Origin: Candidatus Saccharimonadota bacterium
GTDB taxonomy: Bacteria; Patescibacteriota; Gracilibacteria; UBA4473
Assembly: GCA_030429505.1 (NCBI GenBank)
Contig: JAUIFI010000001.1
Location: forward strand, 30,001 to 62,000
DNA: 32,000 nt
Reading direction: 5' to 3'
The stretch's first letter is position 1. The number at the start of each line of letters is the position of its first letter. Position numbers and translations under genes: made by a program. Of the stretch, positions 9,024-30,103 are shown one piece after another. Under the pieces are notes generated by a model. The model searched no databases and was not told the origin of the DNA. It worked only from the letters and a program-made list of their open reading frames with translations.

Positions 9024-12000
9024 ATGGACTTATTTTTCCGCTTAAAGAAAAGCGTAGCATCACTAGCTCTCGTGGCTATGGCTGCATTTCTGGCTCCGCC
9101 AGTGGCTGTCACCGAGGCACGACTCGATTTTAGTGATACTACAGAAATTCCTTCTTGGGCAACTGAAGCGATTGAAGAACTTATGGGCCAAGGTGTCATC
9201 CAAGGAAACGATGACGGGTCTTTTGCTCCCAACAGACAGTTGAATCGAGCTGAAGTATCCAAAATCATCGTTCTCTCTTCTGGAGTCGACCTTGATACCA
9301 CTGGAGGTTCTCCTTTCCCTGATGTCTCAGAAGGAGACTGGTTTTATGACTATGTCATAACCATGTACAATTATGGCTGGATTAACGGATATCCTGACGG
9401 ACTCTTCCGACCAGGAGTTGGTATTAATCGAGCTGAAATCGCTAAGATGGTTGTTAACGCATTCGAACTTGAACAAGATCTTTCAGGGGCGCCTCATTTC
9501 GATGATACCGCTGAATCAGATTGGTTCTACGGATACGTTGAAACCGCTTACAATAATGGACTCATGCGAGGATACGGTGACGGGACCTTTGGTCCAGCTA
9601 ATGCCGTTACTCGTGCTGAAACCGTTAAAATCGTTTACGATGCTCAACTTGTAGTAACTATTCCAAGTGGACCAGCAGAAGGAACCTTGGAAGTTCGTCT
9701 TTCTGACGCTACAGCTCGAGCAACAACTATTCCATTCAACGCTGTATCTGTTCCATATACAACTCTTGAGTTGACGGCTTCAGACGACAGTGATGTAGAA
9801 GTTTCATCACTTACAATTACCCGTTTGGGATTAGGAGATAATGATGATTTCGATAATGTATGGATTGAAGTTGACGGATTTAAAATCGGAAACGACAAAT
9901 CTGTGAATAATGATGATATTAGTGAACTTCGGTTTAATCCTCCTATGTTCATAGCTGCAGGACAAACTATTCAAGTTGACTTCGTAGCATCTTCAAAATA
10001 CACAGCGACTGATAAAAATACAGGACATCATAACCGTTTCGCCCTCGTTTCTGCTGATGATATCGTATCAACAGCTGAAAACATCGTAGGAGACTTTCCT
10101 ATCGAAGGAGAAGAAATGGAAGTAGCTGATTACCAAGTTTCACAAGTTCGATTTTCTTCTCTTGGTTCTGATGCCACTATCGATGTTGGAGATATTTTTG
10201 TAGAAATCGGAAAATTTCGACTAGAAAATGCTTCATTCGTAAACAAAGATATTGAATTTAGAGCTCTTACCTTCAAAAATGATGGAACTGCCGAACTCGA
10301 AGATACTTTGGAAAACGTAGCTCTCTACGTTTCTGGAGAACAAGTTTCTGCTGAAACCATTATTGATGGTGACTATATTACCTTCCGTCTTGATAACGGT
10401 GTGACCGGTGGTTACGTCGTTGAAGATGGTGACAGCCGAATCTTCTCTATCCGAGCTGATATTGTTTCAGCTGAAGAAGGAGACTCTCTCAACTTCAAAA
10501 TCGATAACTTCGAAGACATCGTTGCCGTAGAAATCGGAACTTCATTCGGAGTGAAAGGAATCGCCGGTGGTACCGGGTTCACATTCTCCAATGGTGCAAC
10601 TTCAGCTGGAACCTGTACAGCAGGTACTGATAGTGCTGAAGATAATTGTGCTCGTTTGAAAGCTTACACGCTTGATGCTGGAGACTTAAACGTATCTCGA
10701 GATCCTGCTTCTCTTGGAAATCAAGAATACGCTCCTGGATCAAATGATGTTGTCTTCATGACAGCTCGATTGATTGCTGGACAACCACTTCTCCTTGACG
10801 GAGTTCAAGTACAAGTTTCTGGTGGTGCTACTGGTTCTGACGTAAATGTCAATGCCGCTAACTCTGCTTGTGCCGTTATCGGTACAGCAGCTCAAAACAA
10901 AGCATGTTTTGATTCTGTTTTCGACAATTTCCGACTTTTCATCAATGACAAACTCATTGACAGTGAAAATTCATTTTCAGGAACTGCTGCTTCAGCTACT
11001 GATGCAGAAGGAATGTACCTCGATTTCAATACAACTTTTGAACTCGCTGGCACATCTATCTTGAAACTTGTTGGAAACATCTCTTCTGATGCTTCAGATA
11101 ATGATCAACTCAAATTTGATGTTGCCGCTACAAACTTCCTGTCTCCTGAATACATTTCTACTGGAGACCAAGTTCAATCTACAGAACTTCTTGGTACTGC
11201 GACATCTTCTTTCGCGAAAGTACTCAAATCACAGCTCACGATTACCAAAACCGACGGACTTTCCGACGGAAACAAACTCGTAGCTGGTTCTGATGACATT
11301 GTGTTCAATGAGTTTGTATTGGATAACAATGATTCTGGAGATGTAAATGTGACTTCTGTCACTGTGAAACCAGATGTAAGCGTTAATACAACCAATGCTG
11401 GTAAAGGGCGATCTGGAAGCGCGCGAACTGGAGGAAATTATACACTTGCTATCTTTGTAGATGGAACTCAACAAGGTTCAGCGAAAAACTTTGATGCTAC
11501 ATCAGTTACAGCCGCCTTTAATGACATAAATGTTGTCATTCCATCAGCAGGACAAAAAGAATTCACTGTTGTTACTGATACCATTGAATCTTCAGCAACT
11601 GCTATCGCTACAATACCACTGGCTGGTCAAAACGAAACAGCGCTTGGTAATTCAGCAAATGTAGTGGTCGGTTCTACTACCGGAATGACTGTAGGGGATT
11701 TAATTGTCTTCGATAACGCTGGTACTGATATTGTACGAGCTATTACAGCAGTTGTGAATGCAACAACTCTAACGCTTGATGCAGATATCGGAGCCAATAT
11801 TCCTGATGGATCGTCAGTAACTATTCGACATCAAATCAAATTCGACATTATCGCTGTTGACGCAGACAATGTCGAAAACGGATCAACAGTAACCGTCCTT
11901 GAAGGAGGCGTTGCTCTTAGTACAGCGAATCCTCTCGAAGGAACACTTTTCGTACTTGTTGGTTCTGGTACCCTCAAAGCTTCTCTCCAATCTACTGTCT

Positions 12001-13373
12001 TCGCAGACGTACTTGTAGAAGGAGAAAAAGGTGCCACTATCATGAAAGTTCAGTTCAATGCAGCTGATGATGAAGTCCATATTACCGATCTTTACTTCGA
12101 AAATGATATCGATAACGACGGTACCTTGGATAATTCTGCAACGAACAATACAAATGTTGAAGGACGAATCGACTTCGAACTTTTCAATGAAGCTGGACAA
12201 ATGATTCAAAGAAAACAAATGATTAGCGGAGTTCTTCATTTCCAACTCCAAAATCAAAAACGAATTCGAGTACCAAAAGATGGAGACACATTCGTAACCA
12301 TAAAGGGAGATGTTCGTTCCATCACTCGAGCTGATCAAACCGGGAAACGGTTGAGACTCTCGCTCGATGGTGATAACGCAGCAAATTTCCGTGGTGTTGA
12401 AGCTATTACAGCTGCAACTGGAGACGACATTGACCTTCCAACTGCTACTCCATGGTGGGAATCTGTGGTAAATCAAGTAACCAGTCAGGAATTTGTGTTG
12501 TACAAAACCAACTTGATCGTTGAACCAGCATCAACTCAACCAAGCTTTTCTGGTCCAAACGTCCAAGCACAAGAAATGTTCCGATTCACTGTTTCTGCTG
12601 ACGCAGCAGATCAAGCTGATGTTGAACGTTTGACTATGGATGTTACCATATCAGGTATGCGTGGAAACGGAAATGCTGCTGTTGAATCTGCAGACTTCTC
12701 TATCTTCCGAGTTGATAACGGTATAGCTCAAACTGGTAATACCATTACTGACAGTGTCGTTGCATACAACGTATCAACAACCACTGCTCGAGTAGTCGTG
12801 GATTTCACTAACGAAACAGTGTCTCATGCAACTCCAGTTACCTACGCACTCTTTGTCGGTGGTACAGAAGATGATGGATCCGCTCGAAGTGATGATGATG
12901 CGATCAGCGTCACATTCCTCCAAGATGAAGCGTACGATGCACCAACAACGCAAACACTCATGAAGCAAGGAACTACTCCAGCTGCTTCATCAGCAGACGG
13001 TACTACAACAACTATTATAGTACCTGATACTGAAGCACTTGCTGCTGGTATCATCGATGCTGACGACAACGCCGCTCAGACTTATACTGAGTCTATTGGA
13101 CGATACGCTATCGTAACTGATGCGGTTACAGCTGCCAATTCACGTCTGGTAAAAATTACCAACGCGGTCAGTGATGCCACTGACCTCACGGTAACCTTTA
13201 CACCAGCCGTAGGAGCTGCTACTGCCAATGTAGATAACGATACTATTGTTCTCTTTAGTGCAGTTGTCTGGTCTGATGAATCAGATCCTTCCCATTCAGC
13301 TTCTACATCTGACTGGTTGAACGGATTTGAAGTTGGAGTCAATACTTCATCTACTCAAGTCGGACCATACTAA
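9024..13373 (+). CDS. S-layer-type surface protein with signal peptide and three N-terminal SLH domains (1449 aa)
   Basis: Signal peptide is MDLFFRLKKSVASLALVAMAAFLAPPVAVTEA. Three SLH repeats are present: FSDT..WATEAIEELMGQGVIQGNDDGSFAPNRQLNRAE; FPDV..WFYDYV..GYPDGLFRPGVGINRAE; FDDT..WFYGYV..GYGDGTFGPANAVTRAE. The remaining ~1240 aa are T/S/A/V/D/N/G-rich with only two Cys pairs. Confidence 0.9.
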   Translation: MDLFFRLKKSVASLALVAMAAFLAPPVAVTEARLDFSDTTEIPSWATEAIEELMGQGVIQGNDDGSFAPNRQLNRAEVSKIIVLSSGVDLDTTGGSPFPDVSEGDWFYDYVITMYNYGWINGYPDGLFRPGVGINRAEIAKMVVNAFELEQDLSGAPHFDDTAESDWFYGYVETAYNNGLMRGYGDGTFGPANAVTRAETVKIVYDAQLVVTIPSGPAEGTLEVRLSDATARATTIPFNAVSVPYTTLELTASDDSDVEVSSLTITRLGLGDNDDFDNVWIEVDGFKIGNDKSVNNDDISELRFNPPMFIAAGQTIQVDFVASSKYTATDKNTGHHNRFALVSADDIVSTAENIVGDFPIEGEEMEVADYQVSQVRFSSLGSDATIDVGDIFVEIGKFRLENASFVNKDIEFRALTFKNDGTAELEDTLENVALYVSGEQVSAETIIDGDYITFRLDNGVTGGYVVEDGDSRIFSIRADIVSAEEGDSLNFKIDNFEDIVAVEIGTSFGVKGIAGGTGFTFSNGATSAGTCTAGTDSAEDNCARLKAYTLDAGDLNVSRDPASLGNQEYAPGSNDVVFMTARLIAGQPLLLDGVQVQVSGGATGSDVNVNAANSACAVIGTAAQNKACFDSVFDNFRLFINDKLIDSENSFSGTAASATDAEGMYLDFNTTFELAGTSILKLVGNISSDASDNDQLKFDVAATNFLSPEYISTGDQVQSTELLGTATSSFAKVLKSQLTITKTDGLSDGNKLVAGSDDIVFNEFVLDNNDSGDVNVTSVTVKPDVSVNTTNAGKGRSGSARTGGNYTLAIFVDGTQQGSAKNFDATSVTAAFNDINVVIPSAGQKEFTVVTDTIESSATAIATIPLAGQNETALGNSANVVVGSTTGMTVGDLIVFDNAGTDIVRAITAVVNATTLTLDADIGANIPDGSSVTIRHQIKFDIIAVDADNVENGSTVTVLEGGVALSTANPLEGTLFVLVGSGTLKASLQSTVFADVLVEGEKGATIMKVQFNAADDEVHITDLYFENDIDNDGTLDNSATNNTNVEGRIDFELFNEAGQMIQRKQMISGVLHFQLQNQKRIRVPKDGDTFVTIKGDVRSITRADQTGKRLRLSLDGDNAANFRGVEAITAATGDDIDLPTATPWWESVVNQVTSQEFVLYKTNLIVEPASTQPSFSGPNVQAQEMFRFTVSADAADQADVERLTMDVTISGMRGNGNAAVESADFSIFRVDNGIAQTGNTITDSVVAYNVSTTTARVVVDFTNETVSHATPVTYALFVGGTEDDGSARSDDDAISVTFLQDEAYDAPTTQTLMKQGTTPAASSADGTTTTIIVPDTEALAAGIIDADDNAAQTYTESIGRYAIVTDAVTAANSRLVKITNAVSDATDLTVTFTPAVGAATANVDNDTIVLFSAVVWSDESDPSHSASTSDWLNGFEVGVNTSSTQVGPY

Positions 13374-13574: not shown

Positions 13575-15548
13575 ATGACAGAAAAGAAATTTCAACTGCA
13601 ATCAGATTTTTCCCCTACAGGCGACCAGCCACAAGCAATTGATAATCTCACCAAAGGCTTGGAAAACGGACTTCGGCATCAACTCCTTTTAGGAGCCACC
13701 GGAACGGGAAAAACTTTCTCCATGGCCAATATCATACAGCGTACCCAACGACCAACCTTGGTACTCGCGCATAATAAAACTTTGGCTGCGCAATTGTGTG
13801 CTGAGTTTCAGCAGTTTTTTCCAAATAACGCAGTCTGCTACTTTGTCAGCTACTACGACTACTACCAGCCCGAAGCTTATATGCCCAAGACAGATACCTT
13901 TATCGAAAAAGAATCCACCATCAACGAAGAAATCGAAAAATTCCGTCATGCTTCCACCATTAACCTTCTGACCCGACGAGACGTCATCATCGTCTCATCC
14001 GTGTCCTGTATCTACGGTCTAGGAGATGTCGAGACCTACGAAAGTCTGGGATTTGTCATCGAACAAGGCAAAGACTATCCTCGTACAGACCTCCTTCGAA
14101 AACTCGTCAGCATCCAATACGATCGCGTGAAAACCGACTGCGTCCGAGGAACCTTTGAAGTATTGGGAGACGTGATAACTGTCTTCCCTCCCAATAGCGA
14201 CACCGGCTACCAAATGGAATTTTGGGGAGATACATTAGAAAAAATATCCGAAGTCGATAGTTTTACCGGAGAAGTGATTACTGAACTCGATTCAGCCATG
14301 ATTTTTCCCGCCAAACATCAAGTTACCACTCCAGAACGCATCGAAGCTGCTGCTGTACAAATTGAAAAAGATCTCGAAATCCGCTTGGCAGAGCTTCGAA
14401 AAATGGGAAAAAATCTCGAAGCTCATCGACTCGGACAACGTACTCGTTATGATCTCGAAATGCTTCGGGAAATGGGGTACGTCAATGGGATTGAAAACTA
14501 CACACGATATCTTTCCGGCAAGAAAGAAGGGGAGCCCCCTTCTACTTTGCTCGACTACTTTCCGGATGATTTCCTCTGCTTCGTTGATGAATCACATATC
14601 TCCATTCCGCAAGTCGGGGGAATGTTCAATGGAAACCTTTCGCGCAAAACCACACTCGTCGAGCACGGCTTCCGCCTCCCTAGTGCCTTTGACAATAGAC
14701 CTCTCAAGTTTGAAGAATTTGAAGATCGCATCCATCAGGCGGTCTATGTTTCAGCCACACCAGGAAAATACGAATACAAACATTGTGGAAAAGAACACAC
14801 CTGGGAGCAAATTATCCGTCCCACCGGATTGCTCGATCCCCCTATCGAAATCAAAGGAACAAAACACCAGATCGATGTACTGCTCAATGAAGTTCAGGAA
14901 ACGACCAAGCAAGGTCATCGAGTTCTGATCACCACCGTTACCAAGAAATCTGCAGAAGATTTGTCAGAATATCTAATTGAGTCTGGCGTCAAAGCTAAAT
15001 ATCTGCACTCGGAAATTGATACCTTGGAACGAATTGAGATTCTCACTCAACTCCGTAGTGGCAAAATCGACGTCATTGTCGGGATTAACTTACTCCGAGA
15101 AGGACTCGATCTGCCCGAAGTATCACTTATTTGCATCCTAGATGCCGATAAGCAAGGTTTTCTTCGTTCTCGCGATTCACTCCTCCAAGTCATCGGACGA
15201 GCCGCTCGAAACGCCGAAGGCCGTGTCATCATGTTTGCTGATCGTGAAACCGAGGCTATGAAACAAGCCATTGACGAAACTAACCGTCGTCGAGAGATTC
15301 AAGCCGCTTATAACAAAAAGCACGGCATCACCCCCAAGACCATTATCAAAAAAATCGTCGATATCTCCAAAGACCTCACCTCTGGACAGACCCGAAACTT
15401 CGATAAACTCACTAAACGTGAAGGTATAGAAAAAATGATCAGAGAACTCGAAAATGAAATGGATCTCGCTACCAAAAACCTCGACTTCGAACGCGCCGCT
15501 ATCCTGCGCGATGAGATTTATGAACTAGAGAAGAAGTTGAGGAAATAA
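13575..15548 (+). CDS. uvrB: excinuclease ABC subunit B (UvrB)
   Basis: GATGTGKTF Walker A, DESH box ([11 protein letters not shown]), conserved [14 protein letters not shown], and a C-terminal UVR motif ([18 protein letters not shown]). ATG 13575 matches canonical UvrB N-termini. The alternative TTG 13515 follows a GGGGG and adds 20 aa. Confidence 0.95.
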
Positions 15549-15563
15549 AAATACCTCTCCTTT

Positions 15564-15588
15564 GTCATGCTGAACTCGTTTCAGCATC
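15564..15588 (+). repeat. hairpin repeat copy H1 (forward orientation)
   Basis: GTCATGCTGAA-CTCGT-TTCAGCATC. The 8-bp stem is ATGCTGAA/TTCAGCAT. Confidence 0.85.
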
Positions 15589-15618
15589 TCCTACTACAAA
15601 AATAAGTAAGAAAAAAGA

Positions 15619-15643
15619 GATCCTGAATCAAGTTCAGGATGAC
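15619..15643 (-). repeat. hairpin repeat copy H2 (reverse orientation)
   Basis: Plus strand reads GATCCTGAA-TCAAG-TTCAGGATGAC, the reverse complement of GTCATCCTGAA-CTTGA-TTCAGGATC. Confidence 0.85.
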
Positions 15644-15661
15644 AGTATAGTGTGATTACTT

Positions 15662-15958
15662 TTACAAAAAATCCTGACTCAAGTCTTTCCACCCGGGATT
15701 TTCTTGTTGAATTAAATTTCTTTTCCATGCTCTATGCCATCGCTTCAGTTGCTTTTCTCGTTCCAGAGCAACATGAATATAACTCGTTTCTTCATAATAA
15801 ACGAGTTTGGTACAATTATACTTTTTTGTAAAACCTTCCACGAGCTTTTGTTTGTGTTCATACATCCTCCTGACTAAATCATTGGTCACACCGATATAAA
15901 GAACCGTATGCATTGTATTCGTAAGAATATAGACAAAGTAATGATGGCTTTGTGGCAT
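15662..15958 (-). CDS. small GIY-YIG nuclease family protein (YhbQ/UPF0213, COG2827 type), 98 aa
   Basis: YFVYILTN...VLYIGVTNDLVRRMYEHK...GFTKKYNCTKLVYYE...REKQLKRWHRAWKRNLI..NPGWKDL. This matches the GIY..YIG, R, E and N core of the URI/GIY-YIG fold in its short stand-alone form. Confidence 0.9.
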   Translation of the reverse strand: MPQSHHYFVYILTNTMHTVLYIGVTNDLVRRMYEHKQKLVEGFTKKYNCTKLVYYEETSYIHVALEREKQLKRWHRAWKRNLIQQENPGWKDLSQDFL

Positions 15959-15970
15959 ATGTTTTAATGA

Positions 15971-15995
15971 GATTCTGAAATGAATTCAGAATGAC
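15971..15995 (-). repeat. hairpin repeat copy H3 (reverse orientation)
   Basis: Plus strand reads GATTCTGAA-ATGAA-TTCAGAATGAC, the reverse complement of GTCATTCTGAA-TTCAT-TTCAGAATC. Confidence 0.85.
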
Positions 15996-16015
15996 ATGGC
16001 ACAATAAGGTTGTAT

Positions 16016-16040
16016 GTCATCCTGAACTTGTTTCAGGATC
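16016..16040 (+). repeat. hairpin repeat copy H4 (forward orientation)
   Basis: GTCATCCTGAA-CTTGT-TTCAGGATC. Confidence 0.85.
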
Positions 16041-16098: not shown

Positions 16099-17856
16099 TT
16101 AATCTTTTATCACCTCAATATTCTGCTCTCTCACTTCCTTCTCCGGCATCACGGAAGGTGCCCCGAGCATGAGATCTTGCGCAGATTGATTTTTCGGAAA
16201 GGCAATGACTTCTCGGATATTCGGCTCATCCGCAAAGAGCATCACCACTCTATCTAATCCCATCGCACACCCACCATGAGGTGGACAACCGTAATTAAAA
16301 GCCTTGAGCATATGCCCAAACTTCATTTGAATTTCCTCTTCCGACATCCCCAAAGCTTCAAAAACCCGATGTTGTAAATCTCGATCATGAATCCGAATGG
16401 AACCGCCACCCGCCTCTACACCATTGAGTACAATGTCATAGGTATATGATCGAGCTTTGAGAGGGGCAGTCTTCAGTAAACCGATATCATCGATATGCGG
16501 CATAGTAAAAGGATGATGAGCCGCACCCATCGTACCGTCATCTTTCTGTTCAAAGAGGGGAAACTCTGTTACCCACAGATAGGCAAATTCATTCTCATTT
16601 CTTAATCCAAACAGATCTCCCAGAGTTAATCGGACAGCTCCCAAAGGTTCATGAGCGGAAAGAAAATTCCCCGCCCCAAAGAAAATCATATCTCCATCTG
16701 AAGATCCCGTTTTCTGTTTTACGGCTTCCAAAAACTCATTTTTTGCATTTTTCGCCACAGGTCCCGAACCATCACCGACTCTGTACCATGCGAGTCCTCC
16801 GGCTCCATTTTGCTTCGCTAATTCCGTCAGATCATCAATCTCTTTCCGAGAAAATTCCCCCAGCGTCTTCTCCACTCGCAAAGCTGACACATATTCAGAC
16901 TTTTCAAAAATACCAAAGCCACACGTTTTCGCATCTTCTGTAATATCCGTTAATTTCAATTCGAACCGTAGATCTGGCTTATCAGAACCATACTGACTCA
17001 AAGCCTGATGCCACGTCATACGACGAAATTTTCCTTTATCTAAAAATTTCTTCCATTCTTTTTCCGGAGCACATTTTTCCGTAAGCTCCACAAAACATCT
17101 CTCAATCACATCCAGTACATCATTTTCTTCTGCAAAACTCATCTCGATCTCAAATTGAGTAAATTCAGGTTGTCTGTCTCCCCGTAAATCCTCATCCCGA
17201 AAACACCGTGCAATCTGAAAATATTTATCCACTCCGCTCACCATAAGCAACTGTTTCAACTGCTGCGGAGATTGAGGGAGGACATAAAATTTCCCCGGAT
17301 GAATGCGAGAAGGCACGAGGTATTCTCGTGATCCCTCGGGGGTGCCTTTGACCATGATGGGCGTCTCGATGTCGAGAAAACCTTGCTGATCAAAATACCG
17401 ACGAATGACTTGCACCATATCATGACGCAGTTTGAGATTTCTCTGCAGTCTCTCTCGACGTAGATCGAGATACCGATACTCCATCCGCAAATCTTCGTTT
17501 TTGACATCGGCATCGATTTCAAAAGGAGGTGTCTTGGCTTCGTTCAAAATCTCAATTTTTTCTCCTCTCACTTCGATTTCTCCCGTAGCCATATCTTGAT
17601 TGGTCATGCCCTTGGCACGAGGTTGAACTGTTCCGGTGATTTTGAGAACCCACTCGGAACGAACTTTTTCAGCGACGGTATGGGCTTCTTTATTTTTCTC
17701 TGGATCGATAATGATTTGCGTCAGTCCATATCGATCTCGCAGATCGATGAAAATCAGTCCCCCTAGATCACGTCGACCGTGTACCCAGCCACAAAGGGTG
17801 GTCTTGGAGCCTTTATTTTTTATATTGAGTTCGCCACAGTTGTGTGTTCTGAGCAT
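16099..17856 (-). CDS. aspS: aspartate--tRNA ligase, bacterial type (585 aa)
   Basis: N-terminal OB fold (CGWVHGRRDLGGLIFIDLRDRYG), class II motif 2 (FRDEDLRGDRQPEFTQFEIEMSF) and motif 3 (GLDRVVMLF). The length is consistent with a GAD insertion. Confidence 0.97.
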   Translation of the reverse strand: MLRTHNCGELNIKNKGSKTTLCGWVHGRRDLGGLIFIDLRDRYGLTQIIIDPEKNKEAHTVAEKVRSEWVLKITGTVQPRAKGMTNQDMATGEIEVRGEKIEILNEAKTPPFEIDADVKNEDLRMEYRYLDLRRERLQRNLKLRHDMVQVIRRYFDQQGFLDIETPIMVKGTPEGSREYLVPSRIHPGKFYVLPQSPQQLKQLLMVSGVDKYFQIARCFRDEDLRGDRQPEFTQFEIEMSFAEENDVLDVIERCFVELTEKCAPEKEWKKFLDKGKFRRMTWHQALSQYGSDKPDLRFELKLTDITEDAKTCGFGIFEKSEYVSALRVEKTLGEFSRKEIDDLTELAKQNGAGGLAWYRVGDGSGPVAKNAKNEFLEAVKQKTGSSDGDMIFFGAGNFLSAHEPLGAVRLTLGDLFGLRNENEFAYLWVTEFPLFEQKDDGTMGAAHHPFTMPHIDDIGLLKTAPLKARSYTYDIVLNGVEAGGGSIRIHDRDLQHRVFEALGMSEEEIQMKFGHMLKAFNYGCPPHGGCAMGLDRVVMLFADEPNIREVIAFPKNQSAQDLMLGAPSVMPEKEVREQNIEVIKD

Positions 17857-18295: not shown

Positions 18296-19684
18296 TTAAA
18301 ACTCCGCATTTTTCGGCACCCGCGGAAACGGAATCACATCTCGGATATTTGCCATGCCTGACAAATACATAATCATCCGTTCAAAGCCCAAACCAAATCC
18401 TGCATGCTTTACGCCTCCATATTTTCTCAAATCCAAATACCATTGATATTCTGAGGTGTCGAGCCCCATTTCTCGGACTCGCTGTTCTAGTTTATCCAAT
18501 CGCTCCTCACGCTGTGAACCACCGATCAATTCTCCGACCCCCGGAACGAGTAAATCCATCGCCGCTACGGTTTTCCCGTCATCATTGAGACGCATATAAA
18601 ACGCCTTGATATCTTTGGGATAATCCTTCACAAACGTCGGTTTGCCGAGTTTTTTACACACATACTGTTCGTGTTCGGTTTGCAGATCAATGCCCCATTG
18701 GACCGGGAATTCAAATTTCTCACCTGATTTCTCCAAGATCTCAATCGCTTCAGTGTAAGTAATCCGTTCAAAATCAGAATTCAAGATATGATCCAGTCGT
18801 TCCAGCAACGTCGTATCGATGAATTTGTTGAAAAATTCCATCTCCTCAGGCAATTTCTCCATAACCTCTGAAATGACATACTTCATCATATCTTCCGCCA
18901 AATCCATATCATCCTCCAGATCCGCAAAAGCGATCTCTGGCTCCATCATCCAAAATTCCGATGCGTGACGGGCAGTATGAGAGTTTTCCGCCCGAAAGGT
19001 TGGTCCAAAGGTATAAACATTGCGAAGCCCCAAAGCAAAAGCCTCTGCATTGAGCTGACCACTCACTGCCAACCCAGTTTCTTTGGCAAAAAAATCTTTG
19101 GAAAAATCTGGTTCGCCTTCTTTGGTCTTAGGCACGTCCTTCAAATCCAACGTCGTCACCTGAAACATCTCACCCGCTCCTTCACAATCACTCCCCGAGA
19201 TAATGGGCGTATGCACGTACACAAACCCTCGTTCCTGAAAAAAAGTGTGAATAGAATGACTCAAAACCGAACGCAGGCGAAAGATCGCTGAAAACGTATT
19301 CGTTCGTGGTCGAAGGTGGGCGATCGTTCTCAAAAATTCAAACGAATGACGTTTCTTTTGCAATGGATAATCAGGATCGGAATCTGCTAGAAGCGTAATT
19401 TTATCCGCCTGAATCTCACACGATTGCCCGCTTCCTGGAGATTCGACCAGTTTCCCTTCGACCTCAATCGCTGAACCAATCGTGAGTTTGGTCAAATCCT
19501 CAAAATTTTTCAGCTTATCCTCAAATACCACCTGAATCCCCTTAAAGAAACTTCCGTCATTGACCTCGATAAAGCCGAAATTCTTGGAACTTCGCACCGT
19601 CCGAACCCACCCGGAAATACGGACATTATTATTCACATATTGCTTGCTGTCGCGAAGGATAGATTTAATAAGTGTTGTTTCCAT
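18296..19684 (-). CDS. asnS: asparagine--tRNA ligase
   Basis: 462 aa. Motif 2 is [24 protein letters not shown] and the C-terminus is [27 protein letters not shown], both typical of AsnRS rather than AspRS. Confidence 0.95.
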
Positions 19685-30026: not shown

Positions 30027-30103
30027 GGCTCGGTAGCTCAGCTGGTTAGAGCGTCGGATTCATAACCCGGAGGTCGGCAGTTCAAGTCTGCCCCGAGCCA
30101 CCA
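30027..30103 (+). tRNA. tRNA with CAU anticodon: elongator tRNA-Met type (tRNA-Ile2/lysidine not excluded), CCA encoded
   Basis: Manual cloverleaf: acceptor GGCTCGG/CCGAGCC, D arm GCTC-AGCTGGTTA-GAGC, anticodon loop TTCATAA, T arm GGCAG-TTCAAGT-CTGCC, 3' ACCA. G1-C72 is paired, so it is not an initiator. Confidence 0.93.

Follow-up and report, generated by a model that had tools for sequence, protein, structure and literature searches.

Members of the Ssn family are single-domain GIY-YIG proteins (CDD cd10448; 94 aa in Neisseria meningitidis) that bind an oriented hairpin repeat solely as single-stranded DNA (ssDNA) and cleave a few nucleotides upstream (5′) of the motif (Chenal et al., Nat Commun 2025, PMC11893778). 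Double-stranded DNA (dsDNA), RNA and the reverse strand are not acted upon. Cutting depends most on the three bases ahead of the palindrome and binding most on the C behind it, and cleavage is lost in the Y6A, Y17A and E64A mutants (PMC11893778). The repeat is known as NTS (CGTCATTCCCGCGMAVGCGGGAATCYRG), as NTSvar (CGTCATACTCGGGN5CCCGAGTATC) and in a broader form as SRM, the ‘Ssn-related motif’. The gene is laid out as NTS-ssnA-NTS with further repeats dispersed through the genome, and one or more SRMs lie near 71% of homologues, 42% having them on both sides (PMC11893778). The enzymes tested come from Neisseria and Wolbachia, and in Neisseria the system makes transformation with NTS-carrying DNA less efficient (PMC11893778). 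Here we describe a locus within a 32,000-nt stretch of contig JAUIFI010000001.1 (hereafter the window), in which four copies of a hairpin repeat, H1 to H4, and an ssn gene for a 98-aa GIY-YIG protein lie between the stop codons of uvrB and aspS. Sequence comparison makes it very probable that this protein is an Ssn-family single-domain GIY-YIG nuclease and that H1–H4 are its cognate SRM repeats, together forming an Ssn-SRM module. A first-pass annotation of the same DNA had proposed a nuclease-repeat partnership and taken it to be uncharacterised. The partnership gains support from the SsnA homology and the shared flanking layout described below, but it had already been characterised in 2025 (PMC11893778). 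The pairing of ssn with the hairpins is real, already described and tested, and the locus is a new example of a known system.

The features of the locus, in window coordinates, are:

15563-15588, plus strand: hairpin H1, TGTCAT-G-CTGAA-CTCGT-TTCAG-C-ATC, exact pattern match
15619-15644, minus strand: hairpin H2, TGTCAT-C-CTGAA-CTTGA-TTCAG-G-ATC, exact pattern match
15662-15958, minus strand: ssn gene, 98 aa, single-domain GIY-YIG, between the uvrB stop (15548, plus strand) and the aspS stop (16099, minus strand)
15971-15996, minus strand: hairpin H3, TGTCAT-T-CTGAA-TTCAT-TTCAG-A-ATC, exact pattern match
16015-16040, plus strand: hairpin H4, TGTCAT-C-CTGAA-CTTGT-TTCAG-G-ATC, exact pattern match

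Scanned on both strands, the 32-kb window holds exactly four matches to the 26-nt pattern TGTCATNCTGAAN5TTCAGNATC, against an expected count of 0.00 (mean of 100 dinucleotide-preserving shuffles of the window). These matches bear out the four sequences as first written, together with their order and orientation, H1(+) H2(-) gene(-) H3(-) H4(+), which places two copies on either side of the ssn gene. The variable stem pair is G:C in H1, C:G in H2, T:A in H3 and C:G in H4, complementary in four of four as had been claimed. Folded as ssDNA, each copy forms an 8-bp stem (AT-N-CTGAA/TTCAG-N′-AT) closed by a 5-nt loop, with folding energies (dG) of -6.0 to -6.7 kcal/mol and z-scores of -3.8 to -5.4; H1 gives the values -6.7 and -5.4.

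H1 starts 14 nt past the uvrB stop and is, relative to ssn, the inverted outer downstream copy, its head directed away from the gene; with H2 it makes a tail-to-tail doublet with a 30-nt spacer. H2 starts 17 nt past the ssn stop and H3 ends 12 nt ahead of the ssn ATG. Both run in the direction of ssn, and H3 is the canonical upstream copy of the gene. H3 and H4 stand head to head, with 18 nt between their TGTCAT heads or 20 nt counted from GTCAT, so that both spacers given earlier, 30 and 20 nt, hold. H4 ends 58 nt ahead of the aspS stop. No further copy appears elsewhere in the 32-kb window in a pattern scan allowing up to three mismatches, nor does a generic detector (a GTCAT-like head whose AT opens a perfect stem, followed by a C) find any beyond H1–H4 in the 32 kb scanned. 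A bare CTGAA-N5-TTCAG palindrome (CTGAACTCGATTCAG, window 14281-14295) lies inside uvrB with neither a GTCAT head before it nor an ATC tail behind it; it is no repeat copy and probably arose by chance.

Hairpins at the ends of convergently transcribed genes might be plain terminators or RNA-stabilising stem–loops serving the three convergent genes, the GIY-YIG gene being an unrelated neighbour. H2 lends itself to this explanation: on the minus strand, which is the ssn strand, it is followed by CTCTTTTTTC, a T-run that corrects the earlier statement that no copy has a U-run, and a terminator scan classes it as terminator-like (8 pairs, 3 of them G-C), so H2 may also serve as the ssn terminator. 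The same scan finds H1, H3 and H4 without a T-run and not terminator-like, leaving one copy in four with this feature, and one copy precedes the start codon of ssn. Rfam yields only sub-threshold chance matches and no family for the hairpins and, at gathering score over the whole window, one tRNA only. The asymmetric GTCAT head and ATC tail are, moreover, conserved across phyla along with the gene, and the tested enzymes of the family bind no RNA (PMC11893778). Largely refuted by the cross-genome association of gene and repeat, an explanation by plain hairpins now seems very improbable.

The 98-aa protein encoded between the two stops matches Pfam GIY-YIG over residues 7-81 (E 9.8e-18), in agreement with its first description as a GIY-YIG gene, and no second domain is found. 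Its predicted catalytic residues are Y10, Y21, R31 and E68. Aligned to the 94-aa SsnA orthologue of N. gonorrhoeae, it shows 51% identity and 72% positives without a gap over 90 aa (E 7e-34, 99.4 bits), and Y10, Y21 and E68 fall on Y6, Y17 and E64 with identical spacing. The experiments were done on the N. meningitidis protein, of which the alignment partner is the gonococcal orthologue; this orthologue carries Y6, Y17 and E64, and its 94-aa open reading frame (ORF) is flanked by NTS copies. Among 83 homologues, Y10 and Y21 are each kept in 82, E68 in 83 and R31 within 82-83. The protein collection contains more than 5,600 relatives; identity is 65-73% for the best of them, most of which have a length of 97 aa. 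The published NTS, with one mismatch at most, flanks eight metagenomic homologues that share 52-63% identity with the window protein, and so links proteins with CTGAA-type and NTS flanks as members of a single family. NCBIfam offers no model specific to the window protein, the solved structures include no relative of it by sequence, and a phage collection of 50,697 records contains no Ssn homologue. Two records of about 2.17 Mb filed as N. gonorrhoeae plasmids (NZ_CP119140.1 and NZ_CP119142.1) are evidently whole chromosomes, and their ssnA region (L227; such handles denote individual stretches and loci) is without listed annotation.

The protein had first been labelled YhbQ/COG2827 type, and on that footing it could be a YhbQ/UPF0213-type housekeeping DNA-damage nuclease standing amid unrelated local repeats. 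Both are indeed single-domain GIY-YIG proteins of about 100 aa. The alignment to Escherichia coli YhbQ is nevertheless gapped, at 28% identity and 30.8 bits, and the protein groups with SsnA and not with YhbQ; the repeats also co-occur with homologues on dozens of unrelated contigs. Of the readings weighed here we give this one the least credence. Literature searches on the literal hairpin sequence and on COG2827/YhbQ returned nothing relevant.

The same layout of gene and repeats recurs around the homologues. In the first three homologue loci, a same-direction hairpin lies 20-45 nt ahead of the ATG and an inverted copy right after the stop, and the stems covary between copies (for example TCCGAA/TTCGGA against GCTGAA/TTCAGC). 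We extended the sample by 80 metagenomic loci whose proteins are 52-71% identical, giving 83 homologue loci in all, and 62 loci had sufficient flank. At least one canonical flanking copy is present in 45 of these 62 (73%) and both copies are present in 34 (55%). These rates resemble the 71% and 42% published for Ssn homologues (PMC11893778) and support the assignment to that system. The upstream same-direction copy occurs in 36/62 loci, a median of 27 nt from the first aligned codon, and the inverted downstream copy in 43/62, a median of 13 nt from the stop. Stems vary by locus (CTGAA/CCGAA, CCCGCG, CCTGC, GCCCGG and others) around a constant GTCAT head and ATC tail, and median identity to the window protein is 66% for homologues flanked only by CTGAA-type stems and 60% for those flanked only by other stems. 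The mention, in the first-pass annotation, of CTGAA...TTCAG hairpins beside such genes in other phyla proves correct in these loci.

Both doublets of the window have counterparts. L127, the closest metagenomic homologue locus, has a downstream (+) copy followed by a (-) copy in the same arrangement as H1/H2, and head-to-head doublets just upstream of ssn also occur in L139, L167, L179, L190, L200 and L203. Some cassettes, as we call the unit of hairpin, ssn and inverted hairpin, occupy the short spacer of an operon between a B12-binding mutase subunit and an epimerase (L002, L004); others lie between hydrogenase small and large subunits (L003) or in a sugar-modification cluster (L209). The repeats also interfere with gene calling. 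Several ssn ORFs (L003 3001-3336; L163) read through the downstream hairpin into 105-123-aa products with spurious tails, and at L218 2463-2468 an ATG read from the complement of the GTCAT head lengthens the neighbouring ORF (an SNF transporter called at 529 aa versus 506 aa).

Away from the gene, the repeat is widespread. A scan for GTCATNCYGAAN5TTCRGNATC, with one genome per species, returned at least 120 stretches, where about 70 chance matches would be expected over the whole collection (our own arithmetic, uniform base composition). The counts in this paragraph and the next are among the matches listed. Their sources include sphingomonads, Bacteroidota, Treponema, Gastranaerophilales, Nitrospirota, Elusimicrobiota, several groups of the Candidate Phyla Radiation (CPR) and one metagenome-assembled genome (MAG) of Nanoarchaeota. 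The N6:N22 pair is Watson-Crick in 156 of 165 copies (G:C 71, C:G 60, T:A 25, A:T 0), extending the complementarity seen in the window, and the pair at positions 8 and 20 in 163 of 165. Since nearly all copies pair, the cross-genome matches are not chance. The complete lack of A:T (0/165, copies in L005-L124) suggests base-specific recognition at the variable stem position, beyond pairing alone.

These dispersed copies are largely intergenic, with 33% lying inside six-frame ORFs of at least 120 aa as against 88% of background bases, and they often come in inverted pairs; both tendencies had been put forward as checks on the initial idea. Tail-to-tail pairs are the commonest (52 of 78), with a median gap of 33.5 nt, and this is the arrangement of H1/H2; for head-to-head pairs the median is 15 nt, similar to H3/H4. 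An Ssn-like ORF is present in 4 of 120 stretches. An intergenic repeat found mostly far from ssn is what a dispersed repeat system predicts, which again argues for an Ssn-SRM module in the window. Because most copies lie far from any ssn gene, hairpins without a neighbouring nuclease gene do not count as a valid refutation of the pairing. The CTGAA hairpin is also frequent in IMG/VR viral contigs (at least 120 stretches), and an Ssn-like ORF occurs in none of the 120 repeat-bearing viral stretches.

Several individual stretches merit description. Three viral ones (L282, L290, L345) hold 5-10 copies each, all in one orientation; the genes next to them in L282, and within the first 8 kb of L345, mostly read the other way. 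In an Ignavibacterium MAG (L082 1489-1677), five copies alternate in orientation with a period of about 40 nt and two alternating stem types, resembling a BIME cluster; the arrays in other genomes (L101 58-217, L089 47-248, L109 3883-4547) are tandem and run in the same direction. A Gracilibacteria MAG (L005 6317-6380) has a head-to-head doublet of two stem types, CTGAA and CCTCGCG, in a stretch with no ssn. A perfect copy, TGTCATGCTGAACTTGTTTCAGCATC, lies on a contig of the MAG labelled Nanoarchaeota (L045 2672-2696), and may be an archaeal occurrence, a transfer or a binning error.

H1–H4 share the published determinants of orientation: the head is (C/T)GTCAT, its AT opens the stem and a C comes directly behind the palindrome. 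This counts in favour of regarding them as SRM repeats. Several points weigh against that assignment. The printed SRM search string, HGTCWYN(0-2)YYVSBRHN(0-5)WNVSBRGN(0-2)RNCYNB, was derived from 29 genomes (PMC11893778). Rendered as a regular expression, it matches the NTS and NTSvar controls and none of H1–H4 (0/4), because it demands a G/C-rich stem; it matches only 16 of the 83 homologue loci as well. The string is a search heuristic and not a functional definition, and the CTGAA stem type still falls outside its coverage. Secondly, action of the enzyme on a CTGAA-type stem is presumed by analogy with enzymes tested on other stems. Thirdly, the window, 32 kb of a contig of about 1.02 Mb, has only four copies, all at the gene and none in its other ~32 kb, so that a genome-wide population of repeats in this host is at most a possibility. 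Finally, any cellular role in a CPR host is a guess.

The repeats and their covariation, their fold as ssDNA, the family membership of the protein by sequence and the layout of gene and repeats can be read from the DNA itself, and to these a mechanism may be fitted by analogy with the tested Neisseria and Wolbachia homologues. When repeat DNA turns single-stranded, during uptake, replication, repair or conjugation, the GTCAT...ATC strand would fold into its 8-bp hairpin, and the Ssn protein would bind both this hairpin and the C next to it on the 3′ side. With the GTC/CAT bases in front of the stem as cleavage determinants, it would cut the same strand a short way (a few nucleotides) to the 5′ side of the GTCAT head, and dsDNA, RNA and the complementary strand would be left uncut. 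At the window locus, the predicted H1 cut falls just past the uvrB stop on the plus strand and the predicted H2 cut between the ssn stop and the H2 head on the minus strand, with two more cuts expected in the 18-nt spacer of H3/H4, one per strand.

The history of the locus can be approached through its relatives. The best named UvrB relatives belong to Candidatus Gracilibacteria (73-79% identity); an alternative genetic code for the host was considered and rejected, as the standard code gives a coding density of ~87% with long genes intact. In relatives whose UvrB is 80-81% identical, other genes occupy the interval between uvrB and aspS, which lacks both ssn and any intact repeat; one of these relatives has decayed hairpins after uvrB. 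The comparison with relatives proposed at the outset succeeded in showing the cassette absent and fell short of defining its boundaries. Downstream of uvrB in a relative (L207 5975-6290), a spacer of about 300 nt is full of G/C-rich palindromes, such as CCCTCTCCCTTTGGGGGAGGG and, lacking a GTCAT head, ATCCCCGCGAAGGCGGGGATC; these may belong to a different or a decayed repeat family. A second ssn-carrying organism (L218) has its cassette between the SNF transporter gene and rsmI, and its RsmI has its named relatives mostly in Candidatus Gracilibacteria. Two relatives of this organism (78-81% RsmI identity) are without the cassette. In one of the two, a degenerate heads-out pair (TGTCATTTTGAATTCAGATTCTGCGGCAAGTTCAGAATGACA, L230 2925-2970) lies exactly at the mutL-rsmI junction where L218 has the cassette, and is either left over from loss of the gene or a doublet of the gene-less kind.

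Such patterns raise the possibility, also advanced by the authors of the Ssn study (PMC11893778), of a selfish mobile cassette. The unit of hairpin, ssn and inverted hairpin would be, or recently have been, an autonomous element, gene-less tail-to-tail doublets would be its non-autonomous derivatives (REPIN/MITE-like), and the locus would reflect insertion and not host function. This account overlaps with the assignment to the Ssn-SRM system and is compatible with it. The heads-out inverted layout in 34/62 homologue loci fits it, as do the cassettes placed in short operon spacers (L002, L004, L003, L209), the absence of ssn and intact repeats from the uvrB-aspS interval of relatives at 80-81% UvrB identity, and the absence of ssn at the rsmI junction in relatives of the L218 organism, where L230 keeps its degenerate heads-out pair. 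Gene-less tail-to-tail doublets with a spacer of ~33 nt are the commonest pair type (52/78 among the matches listed), and a near-identical 25-nt motif recurs across many phyla and viral contigs. At L209 2413-2492, moreover, TGTCACCCTGAA...CTTGTTTCAGGGTCTC is split by a segment of ~48 nt that holds a complete TGTCATGCCGAACTTGTTTCGGCATCTC copy flanked by duplicated CCCTGAA/TTCAGGG, a nested repeat that could be the footprint of a repeat inserting into a hairpin.

Other observations sit less well with mobility. Two Ssn proteins, found identical on 18 and 23 contigs, keep to one genomic context each, in single copy and with no sign of recent movement, and neither a target-site duplication nor a clean filled/empty pair at high identity was found. 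Absence from relatives at ~80% protein identity fits loss equally well, and a hydrolytic GIY-YIG nuclease, without known strand transfer, would need host repair to move. We therefore regard mobility of the cassette as possible and rather unlikely. We are as hesitant about its bolder form, in which a ~0.4-kb mobile element of a new mechanistic type would have its ssDNA-specific GIY-YIG nuclease nick each strand outside its own end, leave gene-less doublets as non-autonomous forms and have spread horizontally over most bacterial phyla, CPR and phage, with the CTGAA stem as its most widespread form.

Conceptually, the Ssn-SRM assignment brings little that is new, being a rediscovery of the 2025 system, with a stem type and a host lineage that the paper does not highlight. 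It places an Ssn-SRM pair in a reduced-genome, Gracilibacteria-like CPR bacterium. CPR bacteria generally depend on DNA uptake, and given this dependence an ssDNA-specific nuclease in such a host may act on incoming DNA. The CTGAA-stem repeat is common across phyla and viral contigs and lies outside the published string; because the string misses this stem, published counts of repeat-bearing genomes may be underestimates. Each new pair of protein and stem is also a candidate for the ssDNA-cutting toolbox that has been proposed (PMC11893778).

Elsewhere in the window, a 1449-aa protein with three S-layer-homology domains is encoded at 9024-13373 on the plus strand. Two class II aminoacyl-tRNA synthetase genes are adjacent on the minus strand, aspS at 16099-17856 and an Asp/Lys/Asn-type paralogue at 18296-19684, and a tRNA gene lies at 30027-30100 on the plus strand.

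Among known systems, E. coli YhbQ (UPF0213, ‘DNA damage response nuclease’) resembles the window protein in being a single GIY-YIG domain of ~100 aa and differs from it in sequence (28% identity, gapped); we know of no repeat partner of YhbQ. The homing endonucleases I-TevI and I-BmoI have the GIY-YIG catalytic domain in common with it and are likewise encoded by free-standing genes in intergenic spacers. They are, however, two-domain proteins of ~250 aa that cut dsDNA and carry a C-terminal DNA-binding domain, whereas the window protein, at 98 aa, lacks any further domain. Its match to TIGR01453, the group I intron endonuclease model, reaches 21.1 bits where the cutoff is 56, and this candidate was rejected.

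The authors of the Ssn study liken NTS-ssnA-NTS both to insertion sequences (IS200/IS605) and to REP/BIME/RAYT (PMC11893778). With IS200/IS605 the cassette shares a small nuclease gene, subterminal hairpins recognised as ssDNA and strand-specific action. The enzyme fold is different, and the ends of these insertion sequences are not inverted copies of one motif and are both cut on the same strand, whereas the inverted copies of the window cassette would put the cuts on opposite strands. It resembles REP/REPIN with RAYT, and BIME, in several ways: the palindromes are short, oriented and extragenic, inverted doublets keep a fixed short spacer, some arrays alternate (L082), the nuclease gene is single-copy and has repeats on its flanks, and the hairpin is recognised on ssDNA. 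The enzyme here is a hydrolytic GIY-YIG nuclease and not an HUH/Y1 transposase, and neither a covalent intermediate nor strand transfer is known for it. As the only gene among H1–H4 encodes the GIY-YIG nuclease, with no HUH/Y1 transposase present, the likeness to REP/RAYT is architectural only. The REP/RAYT-like module proposed in the first-pass annotation thus stands as a likeness of layout, on which the authors of the Ssn study agree, and not as a nuclease that spreads or maintains its repeats, since the family has been shown only to bind and cleave ssDNA and to modulate transformation.

The Ssn system itself differs from the window locus in its stem, which in NTS is TCCCGCG with a 3-4 nt loop and here is the A/T-rich N-CTGAA with a 5-nt loop. 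It differs in host, the examples in the paper being mostly Pseudomonadati and the window host a Gracilibacteria-like CPR bacterium, and in orientation: the nearest copies in N. gonorrhoeae have their heads facing the gene, CTGAA-type loci mostly have heads outward, and the window has both. Common to the two are a single-domain GIY-YIG protein of ~94-98 aa with the same spacing of the catalytic Tyr/Tyr/Glu, repeats on both sides of the gene, a (C/T)GTCAT head that leads, from its AT on, into a stem of 8 bp or more closed by a short loop, with a C directly behind the palindrome, and repeats that, outside ssn loci in other genomes, are intergenic and mostly distant from the gene.

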